DNA of 64,000 nt from Eledone cirrhosa (taxonomy: Eukaryota). The notes under the pieces are model-generated. The model saw nothing but the letters and a program-made list of their open reading frames with translations. It did no database searches and had not been told where the DNA came from. Each line of letters starts with the position of its first letter. Positions within the stretch are counted from its first letter, which is position 1. Where the stretch lies: the NCBI GenBank assembly GCA_964016885.1, contig OZ024742.1, forward strand, positions 47,616,001-47,680,000, read 5' to 3'. Both the position numbers and the translations under genes were made by a program. This document shows positions 26,430 through 64,000 of this stretch, in pieces.

Positions 26430-29400
26430 GTTAGTCGGCCGGACAGGGGAGGTGGGGTGTCAGTGCTGTTTAGGAAAGGTCTGGATCTCGAGGTAAGGTT
26501 GACCTTCCGGAACCCGGACGGTAAGTTGATGGACCTGGACTTCAACAATAGCGAAGGTGGTGTATTTATTTGGTGGCCGTCTACGCACTTACCAGGGCTG
26601 GCCAGGCTTTTTCTGGACGGCTGAAAGCCTTTCGGTGTACGTCTCGCACTTTACTGTTAGCGGGTTACTGGAACGGTATCTTAGACGCACGCTGTGATTA
26701 TGTGAGTGTAGCTGATAGGAGCAGGGGGTGCAAAAGTCTCAAGTACGAACTATCTGTCAGGTACCCACTAGATACCTAATGCAGCAGTGTGGACCTCGAC
26801 CAACCACATAGGGTCTTCCAGATCATATATAGACGGGAATATTTTCTTTAGGAAAATAGATAGAAAATGTGCAGGCTATCCATAATTTAAAACGGTCGCC
26901 TATTCAGATCACGAGTTTGTGATCTGTATGGTCGACCTAGATAAGACTCGTAGGTTAGGATCTGCTTACTGGAAACTGAACATGTCGTTTACGGCACGTA
27001 AGGCTTTTAGAGACCGAACCAACAATTTAGTTAAGCAAAAGTTGACAGGCTGCGGTCCGCAACAACAGATGGTGGGGGGGGGGGGGGCGGGCTCTCAAAA
27101 GAGAGATGAGAGTAATTTCGATAGGGTTTAGTAAAGAAGTAGCTTTAGAGGAAATAGAAAGGAGTGGGTAGCTGGTAGCTAAGTTAGACGAGACTGTTCG
27201 TAATGGCATTGCAACTGACGTTCTAACAGCGAGAATGGCATTAGTAAATTTCTTCAATGCGAAACAGGAAGGCTGCATTGTCAGAGCTAAGTCGCGTGCT
27301 CTGAGAATCGAGGGAACCAAAGCTGTTCGATGGGCCCGAGTGACAGAGGCGCAGCGTGGTAATAAAACCAAAATTCCGTCTTTGATGGACCTAGACGGAC
27401 ACGAGCTGAGTGATTCCAAGTGGATGAGTGAGGCCTTCCGCCAGCATTTTGTGCGGTTGTTCCGGGAATGTGGTGGGTCAGAGACGTTGCAGCACTTCAG
27501 TCCCTAGCTTGACGGCTTGCCGCGCCACTCGACGGCCGGGCCTGAGCGCTGAGAAAGGCAGATTACTTTAGCCGAAATGCAGGATGCACTTGTCGGCTGC
27601 AGAAGCAAAAGTCATCCGGTTTGTATAGTGTGCCCCACGAACTTTACGTAAATATGCCAGACTTGGTCTCCGATGTCCTCGAAGCGCTCTACTGCAACTG
27701 CCAGCAGAATAGGAGTATTGCCAGTTGTGTGAACCGGAGCTAAGTGATGCTGATAAGGAAAGATGAGAACAAGTAGGGCACATTCAATAACTTTAAGGCC
27801 AATAACTCTGCTCAACACAGAGTTTAACATTTTGGCCAAGGTGTTTGCGAAGAGGTTGGCGCTTGTCATCGAAGATTTGGTTGGGGCGGAGCAAACTTGC
27901 AAAATTCCGACCAGCTCCATACATGACCAATTCCACCTCATGCGATATATCATACAGAGGGTAGGGTGTAAACCATGTTTCGATGGGCATCTGATAAATT
28001 TAGATCAATCGAAAGCATTTGATAGGGTCGGCCATCGGGACTGGAGGTTGTTGTCAAGACAGCTGGCTTCCGCCCGTCTTCAGAAGCTGCAATGCACAGC
28101 GGCATCTGTTCGTTGATCAAATTTAATGGTCACCTCTCCGAACCGTTTCAGATTTCCCGTTTGGTCCGTCGAAGGTGCCCTCTCTCTTCCCATCTGTACG
28201 TATTGACTCTCGAGCCTTTACTGCAGAAGCTGGAGCTGTTGCGGGGCATCCCGTTCGAACCGGGACGTGGAAAATCTGTGTTGGCTTATGCGGACGACAT
28301 CACCGTAATGGTGTCGGACACCTCAAAAATCGAGGTGGTTGGTAAGATATTGGAGGAAAATGTAAGTTTGACGGGAGCGAATCTTAACCCGGAAAAGTCG
28401 GTGACCTTGGAGAGCGGCAGCTGGAGAGGCAGGTTCATGCCGTTCAACAGCGTCCTCGGGTGCTGCACGGACGGAACAGTAATGTTGGTCGGGGTTTGGT
28501 TCGGACCAGACCTCCAGGAGGAAAGACTGGCTACTGAGCTCGTTACCAGGATAGCCAGTCTCAGCCATAAATGGGCTGCGAGGAAGCTATCACTGAAAGA
28601 TCAGGCGGAGGTGGCAAACGCGTACATCGCATCCGTCATCTACTACCGCGTGACCGTCTGGCTTTGTCCCCGTCCGTGCCTCGCCAACTTGGGACGGCTC
28701 CTCTTCAATTCTTGTGGAGGGGACAGGTCAGTTGGTGAGGCAGTCCATCTGCTGCCAGCACCCTCTACGTAGAGCGCTGGGCATGCCATGTATAATGATG
28801 CTCAGACATGTGCTGACACTGCGGTATCTCCAGATATTCTGCCTAAACACTGAACATGTCTTGTCAACGTTTACAAGACGGGACTCTCCACAACTCATCT
28901 CTTTGACTGAGCTGCAGTCCAGGGTCAAGAAAAAACCGAGACTGAGTGACTGGGATCTGGAATGTTGCCAGGCACTCACTGCCCTCTACCTGGCGGACAA
29001 TGCGGTCAGTGGAACTTCCACTCTCTAGTTCTATAGAGGATTAGTGGTGGGCAAGTGCGACGATACATTGGGAGAGGCTCTGGGTGTCGACGAAGTCGAA
29101 CTGACCAGTCTGTTACAGAGGACATTTGAGCCGGTGAACCTGCATAATTTCAAAAGATCCGTCGCTTGGCAATACTACTGGTGGAACAGCCGGTTTGATA
29201 TAAACGCTACAGCCACGGAAGTGCTGTCAGACAGACCTGACCGAGAAGCGCGCAGAGTGACGAAACCGTTCTGCACGCACTCGTTCAGTGTCGGTGCATT
29301 AATGACTTGTGGAGTAATTCGAAAAGCTGTTGTCGCGTGTAGGACGGATCTGACTATCCGCCGAGTCCGCAGTGAAGATCGCCTCATGCCTTCATTTGGC

Positions 29401-29940
29401 CAGGAATGGCAAGCAATTTTCCTCTGCCTAGTGGCAGTTGCGAAAGAGATTGTGTGGTGGACCTTGTTGAATGGACTGAAGAGAAACACTTTTCTCTTCA
29501 ACCAATCCCTCATCAACTTTTCCAAATTTCACTTAGAAAGGTAGGTGGTGGTGGAGAGAGAAGTGCTGCCCCCTAGTACATTTGCTGACAGTTGGGTGAA
29601 TGTGGCGAGAATGGCCCGTGTGAGTAGGCCTACTCTGATCATGCACCCGTATGCTGTTGGATTTGAGGAGTGGAGTTCCCTTTCCGGTTGCCCTTCAATT
29701 GTGGGGTGGTTGAGGATTGGTGGTTACCCCCCTCCCTATTGGGGCATTTTCATTGTTGTATTTTTCCTGTTTATTATTATTGTTTTCCTATTGTTTACAT
29801 GATTTTTTATGTAAAACCCCCACTGTCTGTACCCCCCACAGTCCGTGTCTATTGTATTGTCCCCTATATGTCGGCCCTTGTGACCAATAAATGAAATATT
29901 TATTACTATTATTATTATTATTATTATTATTATTATCATT
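26430..29940 (+). mobile_element. 5'-truncated Tx1/L1-clade LINE (copy C)
   Basis: Endonuclease motifs (SDHEFV, YWKLN); RT motifs RPITLLNTEFNILAK, LDQSKAFDRV, YADD; family 3' end followed by (att)n. Confidence 0.9.
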
Positions 29941-30155
29941 GGTTGGTGAATCCACGCTTCTTATCGCCTCAAGTCTTTTTCAACGTTTTACCTCTTTTCT
30001 AACCGTTCTAAACCTTTTATTCAAGTTTTAAATTTGATAAAAGTTTAGAAGACGTGACTCACCTAATACAGGGGTTCACTAGTAAATAATACGGCACCCC
30101 TTTACGGGGTATCGTATTCGTAATTGTGTAAAAATATTTTTTGAAATATTTCAAC

Positions 30156-32023
30156 ATGGATAACACAAAAAAGAGAGAGAGCGCTGTCAGACAACACAGA
30201 GAGAGAGCGCTGTCAGACAACACAGAGAGAGGGATACTTTATCAGCATGTCAACAAGACAGCGTTCCAGCGGAGGTAAATTTAAACGAAAATATTACAAA
30301 GGAAAAAAAGATTGTTACAGATTTAAAATTAACAAATATTTCTAACACCAACAACACCAACAATAACACCAACAACATCACCAAAAATAACAGAGGCAAA
30401 GTCGAGAACGACAATAACAAATATAACAGCGGTAAGGTTGAGAACGACAATAACAAAAATAACAGCGGTAAGGTCGAGAACGACAATAACAATGACAATA
30501 ACAACAGCCACAACAACAATAATAGTAGGAACAGTATCAACAAAAACAACAATAATAACAACAGCCACAATAACAATAACAGCAGCAACAGTATCATGGC
30601 AGTCGCAAGGGCCATGGTGACAAGAAGCGGAAATAGAGTTTCCCTGAAACCTCCAACCGATTTTTTCAAGGACCAGCAGCTACGAACGGTGACTTACCGC
30701 ACCGTAAGCCAAATCTCACATCGAGTGGAAAGAGCCACGGAGGCTCAAACCCAAAAGGCCTTGGGGTGCGTCTGGGCACGCAAAACCCACATCACCCGAG
30801 GCAGAAAGTACGCCACAGTAGATGTACTTTTCGCCACCCCCTATGAAGCAAAGTCTCACTCTTTGAAAACCCTAAAGAGTGAGGAGTTAGTCTTGGTGCC
30901 CTCCTACTGCGGGCAGAAAATTGTGAGGGTCAAAGTGACCCAGGTCCCACCAATGGTGCCCATACGTTGGCTGGCGGAGCCTGTCCTTGCTGGAATTGAG
31001 AAGAGGGCGACCATGCTGCAAGTAGAAAAAATATGGAGAGAGAACTGGTCAGGTATAGGCATGCAAATGCCTATACAAACTGACCAGGAATGTATCGAGG
31101 CTATCCCCGATATCATAGACTTTGAGGAAGGACTCCAACTCCCTATAAGTGTAGAATGAAGACGGCCAAAATGCTGTGGGTCGAAATGTCACCTCAGGGC
31201 CTTTTGCCCGCAGAAGACACCGAAGAGGGCCCCTCTCCTTCCAATACCTGGTCGGCTCCTACCAAGAGCAGGACAGGCAACAAACGAAGAAGCCCCTTTC
31301 ACGGTGAGTAGGAGCGCAACGTCCGTAGCCCCCGTACCAAGGCCACGGATAACTAAAGCAGCATCATCAGTAGCGGCAACACCAATAGCTACATTTGAAA
31401 TAGCTACACCAGCAACAACATTGCCGAAGAGGGCTCCACTGCCACCACCAACAGCCGTGGAGCACATACCCCTCCCAGACGCCACAGAATCCGACATGGA
31501 GTTTGAGGCGGGAGTAACGTGGCAAACAGTCTGCCCCTAAAAACAAAAAACAAAAAAGACCTTAGATTCACCCTCCAAAAGCGAATGCATACAAAGAGGG
31601 GTAAAGGCAGCAAGGAAACTTGCAGCAACTCCACCACAAACACCAACAACGCAAACGCAACAAGACACACACACCAAACAGCAACAAGAAGAAAACGGCA
31701 ACAAAATCACGCCTCCCCCCCAAAAGTACACAGCCATAAACATAGCAAAAAAAGAACTCGTAAAATATATAAAGCAGCACACAGACATCACGGAAAAAAA
31801 TTACTACACCCCACCAACACCAAGAACTCTCCCGACAAACATAAGCATCATCGAAATCTCAATAGAACAATACAAACCTTTAAAACAAAAATTCCCCAAC
31901 GCAGTTGGAGACTTCAGTGGGACGGTTACCAAGAGGATATACACTGACATCCTCTTGGAAACACCCATGACCAGCGAAAGGGACGGTTCTACTGTCCCTT
32001 CACCACACGAACAAGGTAAGTGA
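30156..32023 (+). pseudogene. LINE ORF1 (Asn-rich N-terminus, degenerate CCHC knuckle), disrupted
   Basis: ATG at 30156; NNN repeats; RRPKCCGSKCHLRAFCP knuckle remnant; Pro/Thr-rich tail; stops and frameshifts. Confidence 0.7.
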
Positions 32024-32055
32024 CCCTTTCTCATTTGCCCCGTTTCTCATCCAAC

Positions 32056-35000
32056 ATGGCTGTACTCAGAATAGGCAGTATAAATGCACGTAGCCTGGGG
32101 TCATCTTGGAAGCAGGGTCATCTGCTCAATGACCTCAGGTCACTAAACAGATGTGGTGGCCATAAGTGAAACCAGAATCTCCGAGGCACAGGCCTTCGCA
32201 CCGATCTTCGGCGGCTACGATGTATACGCATCTCCCAGCCGTCCAGGATCGGGGGGAGGGGTTGCCGTCCTTTTTCGGAGAGGCTTGGATCTCGCGATAC
32301 GGGCCATCTTCCTGGACCCAGAAGGTTAGTCGGTGGTGCTGGACGTGACCGGCAGCGAAGGCAATGCTTTCAGGCTAGTAGCCGCCTACGCCCCAACAGG
32401 GGCAGGATGGCCAGATTTCTTCAGACGTCTAGAGACCGCTCGTTAATGTTAGTGGGAGACTGGAACGGGATCTTGGATGCACGCTGGGATCGTGTGGGGC
32501 TAGTGGATAGGGGAGGAGGGTGCAAGAGCCTCACCAACCTGCTCAGACATTTTGAACTGTCTGACAGGTATCGACTGGATCACCCGAATTGCCAATGTGG
32601 ACATGGACAAACCGCATCGGGTCATCCAGATCGTATCTAGATAGGGTATTCTGCAGGGAACTAGATAAGGCTAGTATAAGTTGTCCACAATTTAAAATAG
32701 TCGACTACACAGACCACAAATATGTGATCTGTGAGATCGGCATATACAGACTTCATAGACAAGGGCCTGGTTACTGGAAGCTGAACGCCTCTTTCCCAGC
32801 GGGCAAGGCCTACAGAGACCGGATTAGCGTAATAGTTAAGTGGGCGTTGACGGGAGCGGTCGTCAACAACAGGTGGTGGTTCGCCCTGAAAAGGGCAATT
32901 AAAGTAGAGTCGATTAGGTTTAGTAAAGGAGTAGTGATAGAGGAAAATAGAGTAGAGGGAGAGCTAGTCAGAAAGCTAGAAGAGGTATTTAGGACAGGCA
33001 TCGCAACCGACGTGCTTGCGGCGAGATTGGCACTCGACCAATTCTTCAACGCAATGAACGAAGGCTGCGGTGTCAGAGCTAGAGCGCGTGCTCTGAAACA
33101 CGAGGGGACAAAAGCCGTCCAATGGGCGCGAGTGGCAGAGGCGCGACGTGGCAATAAAGCCACAATTCGGTCTTTGTCTGACCAAAACGGGTGCGTGATG
33201 CTCGAACCCGAGCGGATGTGTGAAGCTTTTCAGCAGCACTTTGCTGAACTGATCGGGAGCGGCCGCGGCCCGGAAGGGGCATGGACTTCAGTGCATACCT
33301 CGACGGACTGCCTCGGCTCTCGACGATCATCACAGCACAGTGTTAAGAAAAGCCTATAACAGCCGGTGAAATACGGGAAGCGATGGCTAACTGCACAAGA
33401 GGTAAACCGCCAGGTTTAGATGGTCTGCCCTACGCGCTTTATGCATTTATGCCAGACTTGTTCGGTGACCTCTTGGCAGACGTCTACTGCAACTGGCAAC
33501 AGAACGGGAGCATTCCCAGTTTTGTGAGCCGGGGAGCAGTGGCGCTGCTGAGAAAAGACCCGAACAAGGGGGATGTTATTGATAATTTCAGGCCCATAAC
33601 CCTGCTAAACGCAGAGTTCAAGATTTTGGCCAAGGTGTTAGCAACGAGGTTGGCACTTACGTATTGGCTCTCGAGCCGTTACTGCACAAACTGGGGGAGA
33701 TGAGGGGCGTCCCACGCGAACTAGGATGTGGGAAATCCGAGTCGGCTTACGCTGACGACGTCACCGTGGTAGTGTCGAGCACCAGACACGTCCAGATGCT
33801 CGGCACCGCTCTCAAGGAATACGAAACGGTGACAGGAGCAAAGATAAACCAGGAAAAGTCGGTGGGCTTGCAGCTAGGCACCTGGAGAGGCAAGTCCATG
33901 CCGTCCGACAGCGTCGTGGGGCGTTGGACAGACGGACCGGTTAAATTGCTAGGGGTCTGGTTCGGACCGGATCTCCAGATGGAGAAAAACTGGAACGAGG
34001 TGACGAGCCGGGTGGCCTCCCTCACCCAGATCTGGGCTGAGAGGAAGCTGTCCCTGAAAGGCCGGGCGGAAGTGGCGAATGCGTACATCGCATCCGTCAT
34101 CTGCTACCGCCTCAGCGTCGTCCCTTGCTCCAGCCCAACTCTCACCAAAATGGAGCGCCTCAACTTCCGCTTTTTGTGGAAGGGACGCGCTCCCATGGTT
34201 AGACGATCCATCTGCTGTCAACACCCGTTGCGTGGAGGACTGGGCATGCCATGGCTGTTGATGCGCAAACATGCGCTGAGGCTGTGACATCTCTGGTGCT
34301 TACTTGATCGTGAACGGGTGTGGTCGCCGTTCGCCAGGCACATTTTCCCACAGCTCGTCTCCTTGACGGAGCTGCAGTCCTGGGTCAGAAAAAGACCGAG
34401 GGATAGCCCTTGGAAACTGAAATGTCTCCAGGCGCTCACTGCCCTCTCCCGGTTGGGCACCAGTATCGGTGGAACATCCACCTCGGCGTTCTATAGAGGA
34501 CGAGTGGAGGGGAAGAGCGACAACGTTCTCGGAGAGATCCTGGGCGTCGTAGAAGATCAGCTGCTTGCTCTCTTCCGGAGAACTTTCAGCCCGGGGCCTA
34601 TGGATAACTTCCAAAAATCCCTGGCCTGGCAGTGCTACCGGGGAACGCTGCCGGTTCGAGATAAGCTCTACAGGCACGGAAGTGCCGTCAGCCGGGCCTG
34701 TCCGAGATGTGCGCATATCGACGAAACCGTTGTGCACGCACTCGTTCAGTGCCGGAGCATTGCTGACTTGTGGAGCTATGTCGAACAGTTGCTGTCACGT
34801 GTGGGACTGATCCGGTTGTCGACTGAGTCCATTGTGCAGATGGTCTCGCCGTCTTCCTTTTCGGAGGAAGGGCAGGCGGTTTTCATCTGCCTGGTGGCCA
34901 TGGCGAAAGAGATTGTGTGGTGGACAAGGTTATAAGGATTAAAGACAAACACTTTCCTCTTCGGCGAATCCCTGATTAACTTGAAGAGGAAAATCATGGT

Positions 35001-54093: not shown

Positions 54094-54181
54094 GGAGGTG
54101 AGTTTTATTGTAGTACAATAAAGCAATGCAGATATCGGATAAGTACCACTCTACAGTTTGTAGGACTGGAGTATAAATAAG

Positions 54182-56078
54182 ATATAAGATCAAAAGATGG
54201 TTAAAAGAGTTCCATGTATTTTATTATGCGCATTTCAAAAACAAATATCATCATGCGATTACATTTGCGTTTTCGTCAGATAAAATAGGGAGACGTGATA
54301 TGAAGGTTAAAAAACACTTGTGAATAGTGCAATAGTGCAGTTTTAAATCAACATATGAAAAGTAGTTTTAGACTGATGTGTGATATTGAGAACAAAATTG
54401 AGGGGGGGGGATTGGAAAGGATGAAAAAGAGGAGCAGATGAGAGTAAAGAATGGAGAGGGAGGAGTATAATAAGGAAGGATGAGATAGGAGGAGAGATGG
54501 GTGATAGAGAGAGAGATAGCTTTTATAACTGAGAAAAATGTATTGTTTTACATAGAGAGGTTAAAAAACCGTTGGAAGATAATATATAAATTAAAAGAAT
54601 TTGAAAATTAACGAAGAGAAAATTTTTAGAATAATGTTAAATTAAAGTTTGTGTATTGAAGGGTTTAATAATATGTGCGATGAAAAGAAATTGTTAATAT
54701 GTATTATTAAAAAAATATAAAAATATAACAATAGTAATGTAATTAAGGATATATTGTGCAAAGAAGTAGAAAAGTGGATGAATAAGTGTAATATGTATAA
54801 GATAGATGAGCATGAAAGGCAGAAAAAATAATGAATTGAGGATGAATAATCTAACGTCAAAAAAATGTTTATGTTTACGAAGGATTTTTCAAGGTGATAT
54901 TATAAAGTATTTAAAAGCGTAAGGATATATTGTGGTGATTAATAATGAGAATTGAGAAGTATCAAGGAAGAAAGGTACAGATTGGAGGTTAGAAATTAAA
55001 AGAAAAAGAAAAAAAGAAAAAAGGAAAAAATAAAGAAAGGGAAGTGATAAATAGGAGTGATATAGAGTGAGTAACTAGTATTATATAATGTATAATAAAT
55101 AACATTGAAATAATGTAGAAAGATGGGTATATTTTAAAGAAATATATATGTATATATATATGTGCCTTTGAGAAAATGATTTTAAATTGGTAAAGTATTA
55201 GATATTAGCTGTATACTTTATGGAATGTTCTGTGGAATTTATGCAAGCAGAGAGAAAACAAGTTAGTGTGTCTATTTATTATAGAATCTGAATTAGATAT
55301 AATGGTAAATTTCTCACATAAACAGACATTACATGTCTTGGATAGATAACCATTCAAGTATGGATAAGCAGAAAAAACCTTCCTCCAAGAGATGTTATAG
55401 TTAATATTTTTGTCTTTCAAGGACCATATGAGTTCTGAGAGTGCCGTGTTGGTTCTTTTAAGTTGGTATTTAAAAGACGAATGATGATTATAAAGACGAG
55501 CTTTAAAGGATGTGGAAGTGGAGTCAAAATAGGTAAAGGAATTGGTGTCAGTTATAACTTAACATTCGTAGATTAAGTTTTTTTCAAGACAATGGTTGTT
55601 GAGAGGACATTTATTTTTAACAGGGCAATTACAATTGCGATTAGAGAAATTAACAGAATTATTAATAAGTGACCTAGTGTTATCTATAGGAGGAATTGGA
55701 TTGGAGAAGTTATTTACGATAGGAATAATAGTTTCTTGATTTAGAATGGGATTAAGAACATTTAACGAAGTTGCGTTTGACGTTGTATTTGGGTTTGCAG
55801 AAATTAGCCTAGAGTTAACAATGACGTCGGGAGTACTATTACTATTATTATGATATTCAGTGTTGGAAGGAAGAGATTTAGTATTTAGTATTTTATTGTT
55901 GTGTTTAGAGATAATGTTGGAGATGTTGGAGGAGGTCGTATAGGAACATTTTATAGTGTGTTTGTTAAATATTTTACTATAGATATGTGAGGGAGGAAAG
56001 CATTTATTTAAAGCACTAAAGAATAATTTAGGAATATTATTATTAATAGAGATAGAGAAAGGAGCATTATACCAGATT
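54182..56078 (-). mobile_element. Penelope-like element, left (inverted) arm
   Basis: Reverse complement of 56277-58417; ORF WYNAPFS..KIFNKHTIKCSY..CNCPVKNKCPL..; TCNVCLCEK. Confidence 0.9.
54217..54287 (-). ncRNA. Minimal type I hammerhead in PLE terminal region
   Basis: Minus: tattttat-CTGACGA-stem II-GAAA-tgcgca-TA-ataaaata. Confidence 0.8.
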
Positions 56079-57278
56079 TTGATTTCGGTCCAATCTATCA
56101 TCTAATTAAAACATCTTTGATGCTAACGCCAATTACTATAATAACGCGCTTTCTAAAGCCGGTTATCCTGAAAAAATCCAATATAGTAAAGAAACAAATT
56201 TTAGGTGATCTTACAGTAGAATAATTAATCATGATAATTCCAATAACTTTAATAAAAGACCTAGATACAAAAACATAATCTGGTATAATATTCCTTTCTC
56301 CATCTCTATTAATAATAATATTCCTGAATTATTCTTTAGTGCCTTAAATAAATGCTTCCCTCCCTCACATATCTATAGTAAAATATTTAACAAACACACT
56401 ATACAATTTTCCTATTCGACCTCCTCCAACATCTCCAACATTATCTCTAAACACAACAATAACATGCTAAATACTAAATCTCTTCCTTCCAACACTGAAT
56501 ATCATAATAATAGTAATAATACTCCCGACGTCATTGTTAACTCTAGGCTAATTTCTGCAAACCCAAATACAACGTCAAACGCAGCTTCGTTAAATGTTCT
56601 TCATCCCATTCTAAATCAAGAATCTATTATTCCTATCGTAAATAACTTCTCCAATCCAATTCCTTCTATAGATAACACTAGGTCACTTGTTAATAACTCT
56701 GTTAATTTCTCTAATCGCAATTGTAATTGCCCTGTTAAAAATAAATGTCCTCTCAACAACCATTGTCTTGAAAAAAACTTAATCTACGAATGTAAAGTTA
56801 TAACTGACACCAATTCCTTTACCTATGTTGGCTCCAGTTCCACATCCTTTAAAGCTCGTCTTTATAATCATCATTCGTCTTTTAAATACCAACTTAAAAG
56901 AACCAACACGGCACTCTCAGGACTCATATGGTCCTTGAAAGACAAAAATATTAACTATAACATCTCTTGGAGGAAGGTTTGTTCTGCTTATCCATACTTG
57001 AATGGTTATCTATCCATGTAATCTCTGTTTATGTGAGAAATTTACCATTATATATAATTTAGATACTATAATAAATAGACACACTAACTTGTTTTCTCTT
57101 TGCTTGCACAGAATTCCACAGAACATTCCATAAAGTATACAGCTAATATCTAATACTTTACCAATTTAAAATCATTTTCTAAAAGGCACATATATATACA
57201 TATATATTTCTTTAAAAATATACCCATCTTTCTACCTTATTTCAATGTTATTTATTATACATTATATAATACTAGTTA

Positions 57279-57465
57279 GGGCGGTGGATTGGCAGTATCG
57301 GTAGAGGGTCGGACGCCACGCTTTCCAGCGTGTTATGTCCCTTAGCGAACTGAGTTCAAATCCCGCCGAGGTTGACTTTGCCTTTCATCCTTACGGGGTC
57401 GATAAAATAAAGTACCAGTAATGCACTGGGTAATTGCTGGCCTTGTGCCTAAAGTAGAAACAATT
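57279..57465 (+). mobile_element. SINE inserted in the PLE arm with an 18-bp target-site duplication
   Basis: attatataatactagtta at 57261-57278 and 57463-57480; empty site present in the left arm near 55070-55090. Confidence 0.93.
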
Positions 57466-58311
57466 ATATAATACTAGTTACTCATTCTATATCACTCCTA
57501 TTTATCACTTCCCTTTCTTTATTTTTTTCCTTTTTTCTTTTTTTCTTTTTCTTTTAATTTCTAACCTCTAATATTTTCTTCCTAGATACCTCTCAATTCT
57601 CATTATCAATCGCCACAATATATCCTTACCCTTTTAAATACTTTATAATATCACCTTAAAAAATCCTTCGCAAACATAAACTTTTTTTGACGTTAGATCA
57701 TTCATCCTCAATTCATTATATTTCTCCCTTTCATGCTCATCTAACTTATACATATTACACTTATTCATCCACTCTTCTACTTCTTTTCACAATATATCAT
57801 TAATTACATTACTATTGTTATATTTTTATATTTTCTTAATAATACATATCAACAATTTCTTTCCATCGCACATATTATTAAACCCTTAAATATTATTCTT
57901 AATATATATTAACAATTTCTTTTCATCGCACATATTATTAAACCCTTCAATACACAAACTTTAATTTAACATTATTCTAAAATTTTTCTCTTCGTTAATT
58001 TTCAAATTCTTTTAATTTATATATTATCTTCCAACGGTTTTTTAACCTCTCTATGTAAATCAATATATTTTTCTCAGTTATAAAAGCTATCTCTCTCTCT
58101 CTCTATAACCCATCTCTCCTCCTATCTCATCCTTCGTCATTATACTGCTCCCCCTCCATTCTTTACTCTCATCACCTCTTTTTCATCCTTTCCACCCCCA
58201 CCCCCCTCAATTTTTTCCCAATATCACACATCAATCTAAAACTACTTTTCATATGTTGATTTAAAACTGCACTATTCACAAGTGTTTTTTAACCTTCATA
58301 TCATGTCTCCC

Positions 58312-58382
58312 TATTTTATCTGACGAAAACGCAAATGTCATCGCATGATGATATTTGTTTTTGAAATGCGCATAATAAAATA
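58312..58382 (+). ncRNA. Minimal type I hammerhead in PLE terminal region
   Basis: 8-bp stem I; CTGACGA; ~15-bp stem II aaacgcaaatgtcatc/gatgatatttgttttt; GAAA; palindromic tgcgca; TA. Confidence 0.85.
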
Positions 58383-58412
58383 CATGGAACTCTTTTAACC
58401 ATCTTTTGATCT

Positions 58413-58483
<71 letters not shown>

Positions 58484-58636
58484 ATCATGTCGTTAGAATT
58501 ATTACATAAAATATATACCATTTCCTCTCCCAATTAGCATAATTAACCATATAAAAAAATCAATTAGACCAGGCTATAAAATTAAAGGCTCCTATGAAGA
58601 AATATTTGATAAATATATATTATATATATATATGTT

Positions 58637-58706
<70 letters not shown>

Positions 58707-58754
58707 ATATATGTATATATATGTGTGTGTGTGTGTGTATATATATTTATAAAG

Positions 58755-58830
58755 TAGACATGTGTCCAAGGGACCACGAAGCGGACTTGAATCCAGAACA
58801 TTTTAACCGCGCATCAATGCTTCCGCCATT
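58755..58830 (-). mobile_element. Remnant of a second tRNA-derived SINE family
   Basis: Minus: tggcggaagcattgatgcgcgg..ggattcaagtcc..cccttggacac. Confidence 0.4.
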
Positions 58831-58916
58831 TCATACACACAAATGACTGCACGGAAGCACGCTCACTCTCTCTCTACTTCTCTCTCTCACACACACACAC
58901 ACATACACACACACAC

Positions 58917-58947
<31 letters not shown>

Positions 58948-59827
58948 CACATATACAGACACATCTCCCGTGAACGACTGTATGATAGCTTTTGCACTGC
59001 TTGCATCTTTGGAAGCATAACTCAATTATTAGTATTGATATTTTATTTTTTATTACCGTAAGTTTATTCATATCGACAGTGATATTTGCGTCTAGTTTAA
59101 AAATCTACAAAAAAAATAAAACAGTTATAATTGTTCGCCAAAAGAATATTGATCTTATTCAAACATTTCGTGATATACTGTATAACTTTTTACTTAGGCT
59201 TAATAATATATTGACCTTGTTTTTAACTAATATCTAACACCTAAGAATTATACAATATACAAAATACCTTGGCAATCAATGTTCCACTTAAATGTTTTCT
59301 GCCTGTTATTTCTATTAAGATTCTATAACTCTGTGCATCTTGCAGTTCTTTTGCCAATTTGTGCCTGCTAATTCTATTAAAGGCTGCCAAGATTATTTGT
59401 TAAATATTTTGAGATTTCAAATGATCTTTTCATTTTTGTTCTATAATATTTTTCTTTATATTGTAGTAATTGGATATATATATTGTAATAATTCAAAGTT
59501 AAACTGAGATGGAGTTTTTTGATGTAATGTTTGGGGGTGGAATACTTGATAAAACACCATGACGGAGATGTGTCTCAATCAATATTCTCATACATTAGAC
59601 CATTAATATCAATCGAAGAAAAAGATATTCATACACATAATATCAACAAGATTTAACTAATTAAACTCCTTCTTTGACACATAATTGCATCGTATATCGG
59701 AGGATTCATTCAACAAATTTCCGTTCTGTTTAGAACATATTATTGAGGTACCATAGTACAGATCTATTTACAGGGAATTTAAATTATTTACCCTGTTTTT
59801 ATCCATTTTTGTTCGTTATATTTAAAT

Positions 59828-60035
59828 TCTTCTTCTTCTTCTTCTTCTTCTTCTTCTTCTTCTTCTTCTTCTTCTTCTTCTTCTTCTTCTTCTTCTTCTT
59901 CTTCTTCTTCTTCTTCTTCTTCTTCTTCTAAAAAAGTTACTCCAAAGACCCTTCGAAGGACTCCCATTTCGGCCGCTTGTATCCACGATCGTATTCTCTC
60001 GGTCATTACCCAACATTCATGATTATAGTTAAGGC
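59828..60035 (-). mobile_element. RTE LINE fragment abutting (TTC)n
   Basis: ECWVMTERIRSWIQAAEMGVLRRVFGVT, next to (TTC)n at 59828-59928. Confidence 0.65.
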
Positions 60036-61673
60036 TTGGCTCGAAAACCGAAACAAAATAAAAAAATATGTAATTGCAGATTAACTCCACGTGTTGATAT
60101 CATGGATTTATTTTCGTAATAAACCCAACATGTTCAATGTTAATTATTTTCCAGTGTGTCTATGACCTACCATCATTGTCTTCAACGTTTGTATATTGCA
60201 AGTTGATTTATTGAAACTTTATAATTTCGATGAATGTATGTGCATGTGGTTGTTTATTGCTATAGAATATAATCCCAGTACATTGTAAATATTACCAACA
60301 GCTGCACACATTCTTCAGCAAATTGCTTAAATTGTTTTTCATTTGTTTTTAAGACCGTTCATTTCTTCAATACTATGAACCAGTAAATATCTGTTTAGCA
60401 TTTTGGAATGTAAATGACGTTTTCCATACATATACAATACATTTCCAAATAAAAAACGGAAAATATTGATCTGGGTTTATTTGATCTAAGAGGACGGAGT
60501 AGCCGGAACTATACCCCAACGCATTCTAACCGACGCTTAAACGAACATGACTCTTCGCATATATATGCAAATACCATACGCATGCGATATCCATTTCTAA
60601 ATACTGTAAAGTTAATATTGATCCATTGCAATATATATATTATTTGAGTGAAACCTGATAAAACAAAATTTTTGAGTGTGATTTCTATTTCATTTCATCC
60701 ATCAAAATATGATAAGGTGTTTAAATATATATGACGCATTTTAGATAGGTATGGAAGTTTTATTTCTGTTATAAGTGATTGTATTAAATTCTTACAAATT
60801 AGTTTCGAATCTTACAAAACAATTCCAAAAATTAATAAAATCTAGCGAGAAATCTGTAAGCAGGTTTAGCGACCTATTTAAATTTTTGTATCACTGTTTC
60901 ATGCGTTTACCACTCGTCCTCACAAATGTTGAAGCACACTTGGAATATATAAAGCTTTATGAACATCCGATTGAAATTCCAGAAAGTATATTTCTACAAC
61001 GATGCTGCCCCATTTATTTCTTCTTTCTATCGGCATTTCCACCAAATTTTCATCACATATAAATCATGTTAAAACCTGAAGTATTATTAGATACAACTGA
61101 ATTTTTAAAAATCCAAACAATAAAATCCATTTGTTTAGAGAGCTAACAGAACAAAATCGCTATATTATCTGTTAAAAATATTCTTGTATTTGTCTTGATT
61201 TTAAAGACATTTTAAAATTATTTTTGTCATCATTCTACATCAATTATATGCACATGTACTACACGCACTGTCTCCTATACAGGCATCATATAAACAACAC
61301 CATTTCTTATTTCGACTTTTTCTCTCTAACCAGTTCTAATATTTCCATCATTTCTATAAGAGACATTACAGAAGTCCAAGACTAGTTTTTCTCCTGTTTT
61401 TGTGTGGAAATGTTAACAACGTTTTCATTTATTTTCTTTTATGGCGAATGATCATTAAAACTTGTAACATCTCCAAAGAAGACCGAGTCATGAAATATAT
61501 CAGACTAAACAAACTTTGTTATATTTGCTCTTCCTTTATGTGTCTTATTGTGCTTGTCGATCTTGATTAAACATGACTAAGATACAACGAACTCTCTGGC
61601 GGGAAACAAAATACAGTCTGAATAAATAGTTAAATATATACACTATGACGTGAAAATAAAAATATAAAGATAT

Positions 61674-61713
61674 AGCAACACGATGTAATTGAAAATGAGA
61701 ACTACATCTTCAG

Positions 61714-61805
<92 letters not shown>

Positions 61806-61869
61806 GAATATAAGTATATATATATAAAACTGAAGATGTAGTTCTCATTTTCAATTACATCGTGTTGCT
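61674..61869. repeat. Perfect 40-bp inverted repeat enclosing (TA)n
   Basis: 61674-61713 is the exact reverse complement of 61830-61869. Confidence 0.9.
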
Positions 61870-61874
61870 CTTTT

Positions 61875-62567
<693 letters not shown>

Positions 62568-62650
62568 TCCTATTTTCCAATCTACTACCCGTAACTATTT
62601 TGTACTCTGGTACATTTTGGTCCATCTGCTCCCTTACCACAATTCCTTTG

Positions 62651-62717
<67 letters not shown>

Positions 62718-63071
62718 CCACTATTCTGATGTTATGCTAAGATTATAAAGCTATTGATAGAAGTTAAAACAAAATACACATGCAATATAGCAACATTTTC
62801 CTCCTCCTTTATATCTGAAACATTTACACATTTGAAAAGAGAAAAATTGATAGAAACTATATTTATACGTATCTATTTAAGGATTTTTATCTTTTTACTT
62901 TCTGATATCGTGCCGAGACATGTTTTTCCAGTTTACACCACGAATTGTCACCTAATATCAGGAATTCACTGATTAGTTCCCACGTATACTCACACAAGCA
63001 TACAAATATATGTAACACACATATATAGACGCACGAAGCACATGAACATGCACATTCGCACACACACGCAC

Positions 63072-63179
<108 letters not shown>

Positions 63180-63422
63180 ACACACACATATATAAATGGG
63201 TAAAATGAAACTTACTTCTCAATCTTAGTACGGCTGATACTTAAATGTAAGTATGTATACGTACATACATATATGTATACAGACGTACAGTAGTATGTAT
63301 ATACATACATTCAGATATATATATATATATGTATATATATATTTTTCTAAACAAACAGCCCGAATTAAGCCGTACAGTGTTCGGCAACCATCGTTGCCCT
63401 TTTGTTCAACCCTGACAAAGGA

Positions 63423-63465
63423 ACGATGAACTAGTTTCTAGCTTATTCGCTGTCATCAGCACCGT
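63423..63465 (-). ncRNA. Minimal type I hammerhead ribozyme
   Basis: Minus: acggtg-CTGATGA-cagcgaataagcta-GAAA-ctag-TT-catcgt; stem I extends (ctgaca..aagg / cctt..tgtcag). Confidence 0.8.
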
Positions 63466-63855
63466 ATACCTTCCTGTCAGTCGATTGAACGTTTGAAAAT
63501 ATATACTTTCCTTATGCATATTAACGGCTGAGCAGCCTAATTTGCATATTGAGTGAGTTAGTCGGCCGGGTGTACCCATACGTACATATATATATATATA
63601 TATATATGTGTGCATGTATGTATGTATATACATACTACTGTACGTCTGTATACATATATGTATGTACGTATACATACTTACATTTAAGTAACAGCCGTAC
63701 TAAGAGTGAGAAATAAAATTTCATGTTTTCCATTTATCGTTTTCGGTACACCCGACCGACTGACTCACTCGATATGCAAATTAGGCTGCTCAACCGTTAA
63801 TATGCATAAGGAAAGTATATACTTTCAAACGTTCAATCGACTGACAGGAAGGTAT

Positions 63856-63898
63856 ACGGTGCTGATGACAGCTAATAAGCTAGAGAATAGTTCATCGT
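63856..63898 (+). ncRNA. Mutated copy of the same hammerhead
   Basis: GAAA->GAGA and ctag->atag; otherwise the same architecture. Confidence 0.6.
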
Positions 63899-64000
63899 TC
63901 CTTTGTCAGTGTTGAACAAATGGGCAACGATGGTTGCCGAACACACTATGGCTAATAATTCGGGCTGTTTGCTTAGAAACAAACCGAGCATTATAATAAA

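Follow-up and report, generated by a model that had tools for sequence, protein, structure and literature searches.

Architecture of the Inverted Locus

At the right-hand end of the window (the whole stretch of 64,000 nucleotides of Eledone cirrhosa DNA analyzed here), two copies of a short unit carrying a hammerhead motif lie head-to-head beside a microsatellite, raising the question of how a repeat devoid of any long open reading frame was inserted in this form. The left arm (63192..63576, minus strand) comprises approximately one unit, from unit position ~283 to 274, and lacks a 40-nt segment designated segment C. The right arm (63574..64000, plus strand) comprises approximately 1.25 units, from unit position 119 to ~220 of the next lap, and runs ~100 nt past the end of the window to window-equivalent position ~64098, where it stops at the proximal (short) 3′ site and is followed by (TA)n; this end was placed by hand because a 16-nt deletion halted the segmenter early. 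The outer end of the left arm, on the minus strand, is the distal 3′ site, i.e., the long end, and carries a ~50-nt tail (63192..63242, minus strand) found on this arm only. The adjacent flank (63060..63191), a short (TA)n followed by (CA)n, is the likely target tract. At the junction of the two arms (63574..63576), three nucleotides, ACC, can be read in either arm (microhomology). In the right arm, a long UA/CA-rich hairpin (63578..63677, plus strand), for which an equivalent is predicted in the sister family described below, directly precedes the proximal end site, and an internal copy of both end sites (63677..63737, plus strand; proximal at ~63685, distal at 63737) encloses the ~50-nt tail. 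A ATGCAAAT motif, kept in both families, is located at 63774..63781 on the plus strand and 63547-63540 on the minus strand; we take it to be an octamer with a putative promoter role.

The first-pass annotation had described this locus as two copies of a ~380-nt unit made of two blocks, A and B, with a TA patch on one strand. The arms were indeed found at these places and in this order (minus strand, B-TA-A; plus strand, TA-A-B), but the unit length had to be corrected to ~429 nt, segment C and the TA patch being parts of the unit and the patch not a spacer. The inverted repeats are 63368-63576/63745-63953 (209 nt, 94% identity) and 63212-63342/63586-63716 (131 nt, 92% identity). One rare variant was common to the two arms by automated count, and a second by eye. 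The window copy is an old, half-decayed member of its family.

An origin of the inversion as an artefact of assembly or of a chimeric read is hardly credible. When contigs of four sequencing runs were placed on the locus, the repeat family was found in them, and the junction, within a repeat stretch (63573-63683) that was skipped in read placement, was not bridged. However, the two arms differ at 18/294 columns and by the 40-nt deletion of segment C in the left arm, and 43 of the 88 insertions analyzed below share this simple architecture; their junctions are distinct, and their ends follow a biological rule.

A Predicted Hammerhead Ribozyme with a Short Helix III

The minus-strand copy (63424..63464, predicted cut between 63429 and 63428) is a type I hammerhead whose core is intact. 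It comprises stem I CGGUG/CAUCG, CUGAUGA, a stem II mismatched (C.A) at 10.1-11.1, GAAA, and a palindromic ACUAGU helix III, and its cleavage triplet is GUU. The plus-strand copy (63857..63897) reads GAGAAUAGUU where the family, by column counts, reads GAAACUAGUU, and it is predicted to be inactive because of two core substitutions, A14G (63885) and C15.2A (63887). Fold prediction places an extended stem I around it (63832..63916, plus strand), in which 63832-63850 pairs with 63898-63916. The hammerhead previously noted in block B was thus correctly described as to its type, its extended stem I, and its GUU triplet, while an intact core is present only in the minus-strand copy.

The core CUGANGA/GAAA/UH and its three helices are present in this copy and in the majority of the family. 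An Rfam scan of 58000-64000 gave no hammerhead match at E ≤ 1; its 31 matches all fell below the gathering score and on simple repeats, the miRNA-like ones being noise. The identification therefore rests on motif, pairing, and covariation. Among 11 natural variants of the hammerhead, 95% of the cells were paired and 6 of the 11 pairs of stems I and II changed on both sides, and the core varied only at N7, 10.1/11.1, and H17, the catalytic positions being invariant. As the variants come from two to three lineages, this covariation indicates conservation of the fold rather than many independent events, and the ribozyme fold appears to be under selection in the family. The G10.1-C11.1 pair is C.A in the window subfamily, U.U in a larger subfamily, and G-C in the sister family; a U.U mismatch at the base of helix II, comparable to the mismatch in the window family, has been reported in HHR_Amex2 of the axolotl (PMC7229834). 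Helix III is short, an architecture in which two hammerheads were described as necessary (PMC4209133), and the window hammerhead is likewise predicted to need a second copy, i.e., a dimer.

A wider stem-II pattern gave 85 matches, by eye nearly all indel variants of the families already found. Hammerhead-like cores with an ACUAGU helix III and a different stem II were also seen at L274 (G000:C2:277889821-277889857), whose flanks gave no PLE (Penelope-like element) protein match and were by eye unlike the unit, and at G000:C7:79607779-79607816. At G000:C3:203532321, C4:315615731, C4:375754515, and C28:59431439, rare insertions or substitutions inside the hammerhead recur in neighbouring units of the same array.

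A New Family of Non-Coding Retrozymes and Its Young Sister

The unit, numbered from the base after GUU, measures 429 nt between successive predicted cleavage sites, as read in a natural tandem (L003), and related subfamilies have a spacing of 420-516 nt between units. A DNA search of the genome gave 2,805 first-look candidates, 40 of which were scored. Exact 40-nt patterns had 471 and 753 matches and the reversed controls none, and with 471 exact genomic matches of a 40-nt core against 0, the locus is not a product of chance. Degenerate core patterns had 24,560 matches for the window family, subfamilies included, and 9,469 for a sister family whose unit of 466-469 nt aligns end to end with the 429-nt unit. 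The best copies of the sister family are 100% identical, and this family is very young; its head-to-tail tandem arrays reach 31 units. Young head-to-head sister arrays were seen at L153-L160, L191-L199, and L211-L213 (e.g., G000:C2:210041000-210047500 and C1:5738000-5752800).

No ORF of at least 150 aa was found over the window locus, which bears out the earlier remark that it holds no recognisable protein. Judged from ORFs, protein matches, and the mapped copies, the unit has no protein-coding capacity, no ORF combining reverse transcriptase (RT) and GIY-YIG domains, and no LTR structure. Compared with 60 dinucleotide shuffles, the predicted circular folds have z = −7.8 and −11.9, values that are compatible with a circle and do not prove one. 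On every feature testable from sequence, the locus is a member of a new family of metazoan non-LTR retrozymes, an element type that is already known. Like previously reported elements of this type (PMC7229834), the family consists of non-coding, AT-rich tandem units of a few hundred nucleotides with a type I hammerhead and a short palindromic helix III, present in thousands of copies as monomers to tens of units. Non-LTR retrozyme units measure ~150-450 nt, compared with 429 nt here and 466-469 nt in the sister family. Circles and cleavage were demonstrated for the retrozymes of that report (PMC7229834), whereas in the present family both are predicted from sequence.

Contigs from sequencing runs of two other organisms are roughly 90% identical to parts of the unit, and the retrozyme family may predate or cross species boundaries. 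Four near-identical loci ~27-28 kb apart (L117-L120, G000:C4:352.20-352.28 Mb), each with a PLE and a retrozyme copy, are probably a segmental tandem duplication.

Insertions End at Two Sites, and Opposite Arms Use Opposite Sites

We mapped 91 loci on a circular two-strand model of the unit. After removal of eight duplicates, 83 loci with 88 insertions were retained: 43 simple head-to-head pairs, 41 single arms, and four complex clusters. Their junctions were head-to-head in 49 cases and tail-to-tail in four, all of the latter in complex clusters. Most free 3′ ends (110/133) fell at two sites ~50 nt apart, 52 at unit positions 213-226 and 58 at 263-274, each directly 3′ of a predicted hairpin in both families. 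A (TA)3 was found within 25 nt of 99 of these 110 ends, which run into (TA)n, where a target site duplication cannot be read.

In contrast to the 3′ ends, the 141 5′ starts were spread over the unit, and only one coincided with the cleavage site, in a count biased by the selection of L001-L061 on the hammerhead region. In a sample selected on segment C only, 27/35 arms crossed the cleavage site and one started there. The peak of 5′ ends at the cleavage site that would be expected for linear cleaved monomers was absent in both samples. As the arms cross this site, the template was usually continuous there, either sealed or uncut. The genomic copies include tandem arrays, as the first-pass annotation had led us to look for, but the points of permutation do not vary freely: the apparent circular permutation is random 5′ truncation combined with two fixed 3′ ends. 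Together with the partial tandems, the head-to-head inversion, and a tail at one end only, this variable 5′ truncation forms a PLE-type footprint.

The two sites are not used independently. Both outer ends were at the two sites in 25 of the 43 simple head-to-head insertions, and at different sites in 23 of these 25. The same was observed in the sister family (6/6 two-armed insertions, from eight loci) and, by alignment, in 17/17 scorable insertions among 20 further loci picked from the match lists as adjacent minus/plus hammerheads. Pooled, opposite sites were used in 46/48 scorable insertions (p ~8 × 10^−12 against 50:50).

The Two Arms of an Insertion Share Variants

The two inverted arms of an insertion had 27% of their variants in common (64 pairs) and tandem laps 30% (39 pairs), compared with 7% for arms from different loci (13,324 pairs), and the subfamily agreed in 23/24 inverted pairs. 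At young sister loci the sharing was complete: L153 contains 10.74 + 3.05 units with 0 mismatches, L199 contains 6 + at least 12 identical 468-nt units across its two arms, and six variants run throughout L160. At L156, a variant absent from the other seven sister loci was present in 10/10 units of one arm and in 1/1 of the other. Gene conversion between neighbouring arms could add to this sharing. Conversely, variants were shuffled in a 30-unit arm, among whose units 19 were distinct, and mosaicism was also seen in a 13-unit array. The older long arrays being mosaic, arrays also change after insertion, and length alone is no proof of rolling-circle copying. Nevertheless, insertion from a multimeric or circular template, as proposed at the outset, gains support from the arrays of up to 31 units, from the 10.7 units without a mismatch, and from the arms that cross the cleavage site.

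The second part of that proposal, a fold-back template switch, fared less well. In its fullest form, fold-back or self-priming would make an inverted-repeat intermediate, and the two ends would be staggered endonuclease cuts that resolve it. Such a scheme would account for the sharing of haplotypes between arms, and a staggered cut could also place the ends at different sites; antisense self-priming has been proposed for rotifer Penelope elements (PMC3846280), and so has endonuclease resolution of the tail (PMC8557442). However, a folded cDNA can copy only what it contains, so that simple fold-back fails where neither arm contains the other, which is the case in 12/25 scorable insertions, the window locus included. 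The paired 5′ starts are not mirror-symmetric either (distances of 0-214 nt, n = 43; 9/43 within 30 nt), the printed junctions are abrupt or have short inserts, and the two 3′ sites are family-wide, the tail boundaries corresponding to RT start sites in vitro (PMC11167929). We therefore regard fold-back as a decidedly improbable origin of the inversion.

Penelope-like Families in the Same Genome

An ORF-bearing PLE family with 52,376 first-look candidates has one copy in the window (~54100-58420), itself head-to-head, with endonuclease regions at 55340-55642 (minus) and 56713-57015 (plus), hammerheads starting at 54279 (minus) and 58320 (plus), and a long end on one side and a short end on the other. 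Its hammerhead, in which stem II is long and helix III is the palindrome AUGCGCAU, is unrelated to that of the retrozyme unit. The family targets (TA)n and has two ends ~95 nt apart; as with the retrozyme arms, different ends were used in nearly all adjacent minus/plus pairs (12/13, from 20 loci), a footprint that speaks for the model proposed below. The atlas clusters nearest to its protein carry HTH_animal and GIY-YIG; searches of Pfam and PDB with the PLE protein sequences gave no match, and the PLE label therefore rests on these atlas neighbours and on known motifs. The protein also has a cysteine motif that we take to be Neptune-like. A second PLE family (L234-L258; 30,637 first-look candidates) has endonuclease regions that are 99-100% identical, open frames of up to 1,213 aa, and its own hammerhead-like motif, and it also ends in (TA)n; it is a candidate helper for the retrozymes.

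Neither of these two abundant families showed homology to the retrozyme unit. Both were compared with it as a possible parent and set aside, each having its own unrelated hammerhead. The 5′ flanks of the 41 single arms had no shared upstream body, and held only other repeats or more copies of the unit in the match list. PLE protein matches were found in 8/83 loci and lay upstream in the same orientation only at L050, separated from the unit by other sequence and (TA)n.

These data bear on the possibility that the copies are 5′-truncated terminal repeats (pLTRs) of a long autonomous PLE. Their ends, tail, inversion, and target match those of PLE stubs, and, two PLE families having been compared, a homologous parent could lie elsewhere. 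However, head-to-tail arrays of up to 31 units leave no room for an ORF, the 5′ starts cycle round the unit instead of extending into upstream sequence, and the one PLE protein match upstream in the same orientation is separated from it. This explanation, which the first-pass annotation had named among those that would overturn its own, is largely refuted and seems very improbable.

A Proposed Two-Strand Priming on One RNA

We propose, with a probability of roughly 0.6, that a non-coding ~429-nt retrozyme was pasted into (TA)n by a PLE enzyme, both nicked strands priming one probably circular RNA at two sites. Tandem copies would be transcribed and cut as double hammerheads, and the monomers ligated into circles. 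A PLE RT/GIY-YIG complex would nick both strands of (TA)n and prime from each, using the proximal site for one strand and the distal site for the other; both sites lie immediately 3′ of a hairpin. Each cDNA would then go round the RNA a varying number of times, crossing the sealed cleavage site, and the two cDNA ends would be joined with little or no homology, so that the insert is head-to-head and tailed on one side only. The polarity would be head-to-head because two target strands prime and both 3′ ends face outward. An independent choice of two RNAs would give matching ends approximately half of the time; from the near-strict use of opposite sites and the shared haplotypes, we infer that both primings may engage one RNA, asymmetrically bound. 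A circle would also be a simpler source than a linear RNA of many identical laps on both arms.

Against this model, the window subfamily has a non-canonical C.A at 10.1-11.1, and neither of the two PLE families examined is homologous to the unit. Work in vitro with an anole PLE (PMC11167929) is relevant on both sides. That enzyme nicks and extends both strands and starts reverse transcription at two internal sites that bound the tail; in the same system, hammerhead cleavage was dispensable, unprocessed RNA was the main template, and priming took place without homology.

As cleavage was unnecessary and unprocessed RNA dominant for that element, a linear template stays alive as an alternative. 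Here, two-strand PLE priming would act on linear, uncleaved multimeric transcripts, arrays would lengthen later by unequal exchange, and circles would be by-products. The substrate preference of the anole enzyme (PMC11167929), the turnover after insertion seen in the mosaic 30- and 13-unit arrays, and the short helix III, which predicts weak cleavage of monomers, all favour this possibility. However, aged source arrays should provide laps and arms with differing private variants, and tandem laps and opposite arms were found to share them. Moreover, to yield 10.7 units with 0 mismatches in one arm, or 6 + 12 identical units across two, every haplotype would have to be supplied as a long, homogeneous transcript left uncut in spite of the conserved ribozyme. 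On balance, we consider linear multimers an unlikely template.

More tentatively, and with somewhat less than an even chance of being right, the insertions may record a two-headed rolling-circle reverse transcription, in which a PLE dimer would grip one ribozyme-made circle at two hairpins, each subunit priming one nicked (TA)n strand and copying many laps. If this were true, a single mechanism would underlie the tandem arrangement, the inverted head-to-head copies, and the tail on one side of PLEs, and PLEs would mobilise in trans retrozymes that resemble them in structure and not in sequence.

Comparison with Known Systems

Target-primed reverse transcription of retrozyme circles by PLEs has already been proposed (PMC7229834). 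We found no mapping of insertion ends in that report, and the word "inverted" does not occur in its main text, whereas here approximately half of the insertions are head-to-head, with 3′ ends fixed at two sites and lying in (TA)n. Li, Clavereau and Pollet (2026, bioRxiv 10.64898/2026.07.22.740005) argued for PLE mobilisation of retrozymes, mostly in vertebrates, from co-occurrence and pLTR homology; our evidence is instead the insertion footprint, with no homologous pLTR in two PLE families. Our literature search found no mapping of retrozyme ends and no count of opposite ends, although supplements and subscription papers may hold such data.

Insertions of the present family resemble those reported for EN+ PLEs (PMC8557442, PMC3846280, PMC11167929): they are truncated at the 5′ end, include partial tandems and head-to-head inversions, carry a tail at only one end, lie in microsatellite or AT-rich targets, and have two internal (here putative) RT starts near a stem-loop. 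They differ from these elements in having no ORF and multi-lap arms, and the tail is ~50-75 nt here compared with 30-40 in the EN+ PLEs described there. Unlike in those descriptions, the one-end tail is here a near-strict rule, tied to the sharing of haplotypes between arms.

In the twin priming of L1, two target strands prime one RNA and an inversion results, the arms being adjacent, non-overlapping parts of a linear RNA. Here, in contrast, the overlap between the arms can extend to many units, and each arm starts from a fixed internal site. The promoter of newt satellite 2 is said to include an octamer. This satellite, a hammerhead tandem unit with a weak helix III that works as a dimer (PMC7229834), resembles the present unit; an snRNA-type promoter has been reported for it (cited in PMC2220036), and ATGCAAAT, a putative promoter motif, is kept in both of our families.

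How retrozymes re-enter genomes, and why PLE insertions show tandem copies, inversion, and a one-sided tail, have been stated as open questions (PMC7229834, PMC8557442, PMC11167929). The present family offers a large natural data set governed by a clear-cut rule, namely opposite arms, opposite end sites, and the same haplotype. The very young 466-nt sister family and the two abundant resident PLE families provide material for testing the insertion mechanism, and circular versus linear templates, as well as the priming of one RNA by two primers, could be tested directly with no more than a candidate protein, a short RNA, and a (TA)n target.

Other Repeats in the Window

A near-perfect palindrome of ~115 nt with a ~65-nt extension lies between (TA)n tracts at 62461-62640. 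A hammerhead scan of this palindrome found none; similar copies occur in eight other loci, and it may be another non-autonomous element. Further upstream, 28000-35000 contains ORF fragments of a non-LTR retrotransposon in at least two copies, with motifs that we presume to be endonuclease- and RT-like.
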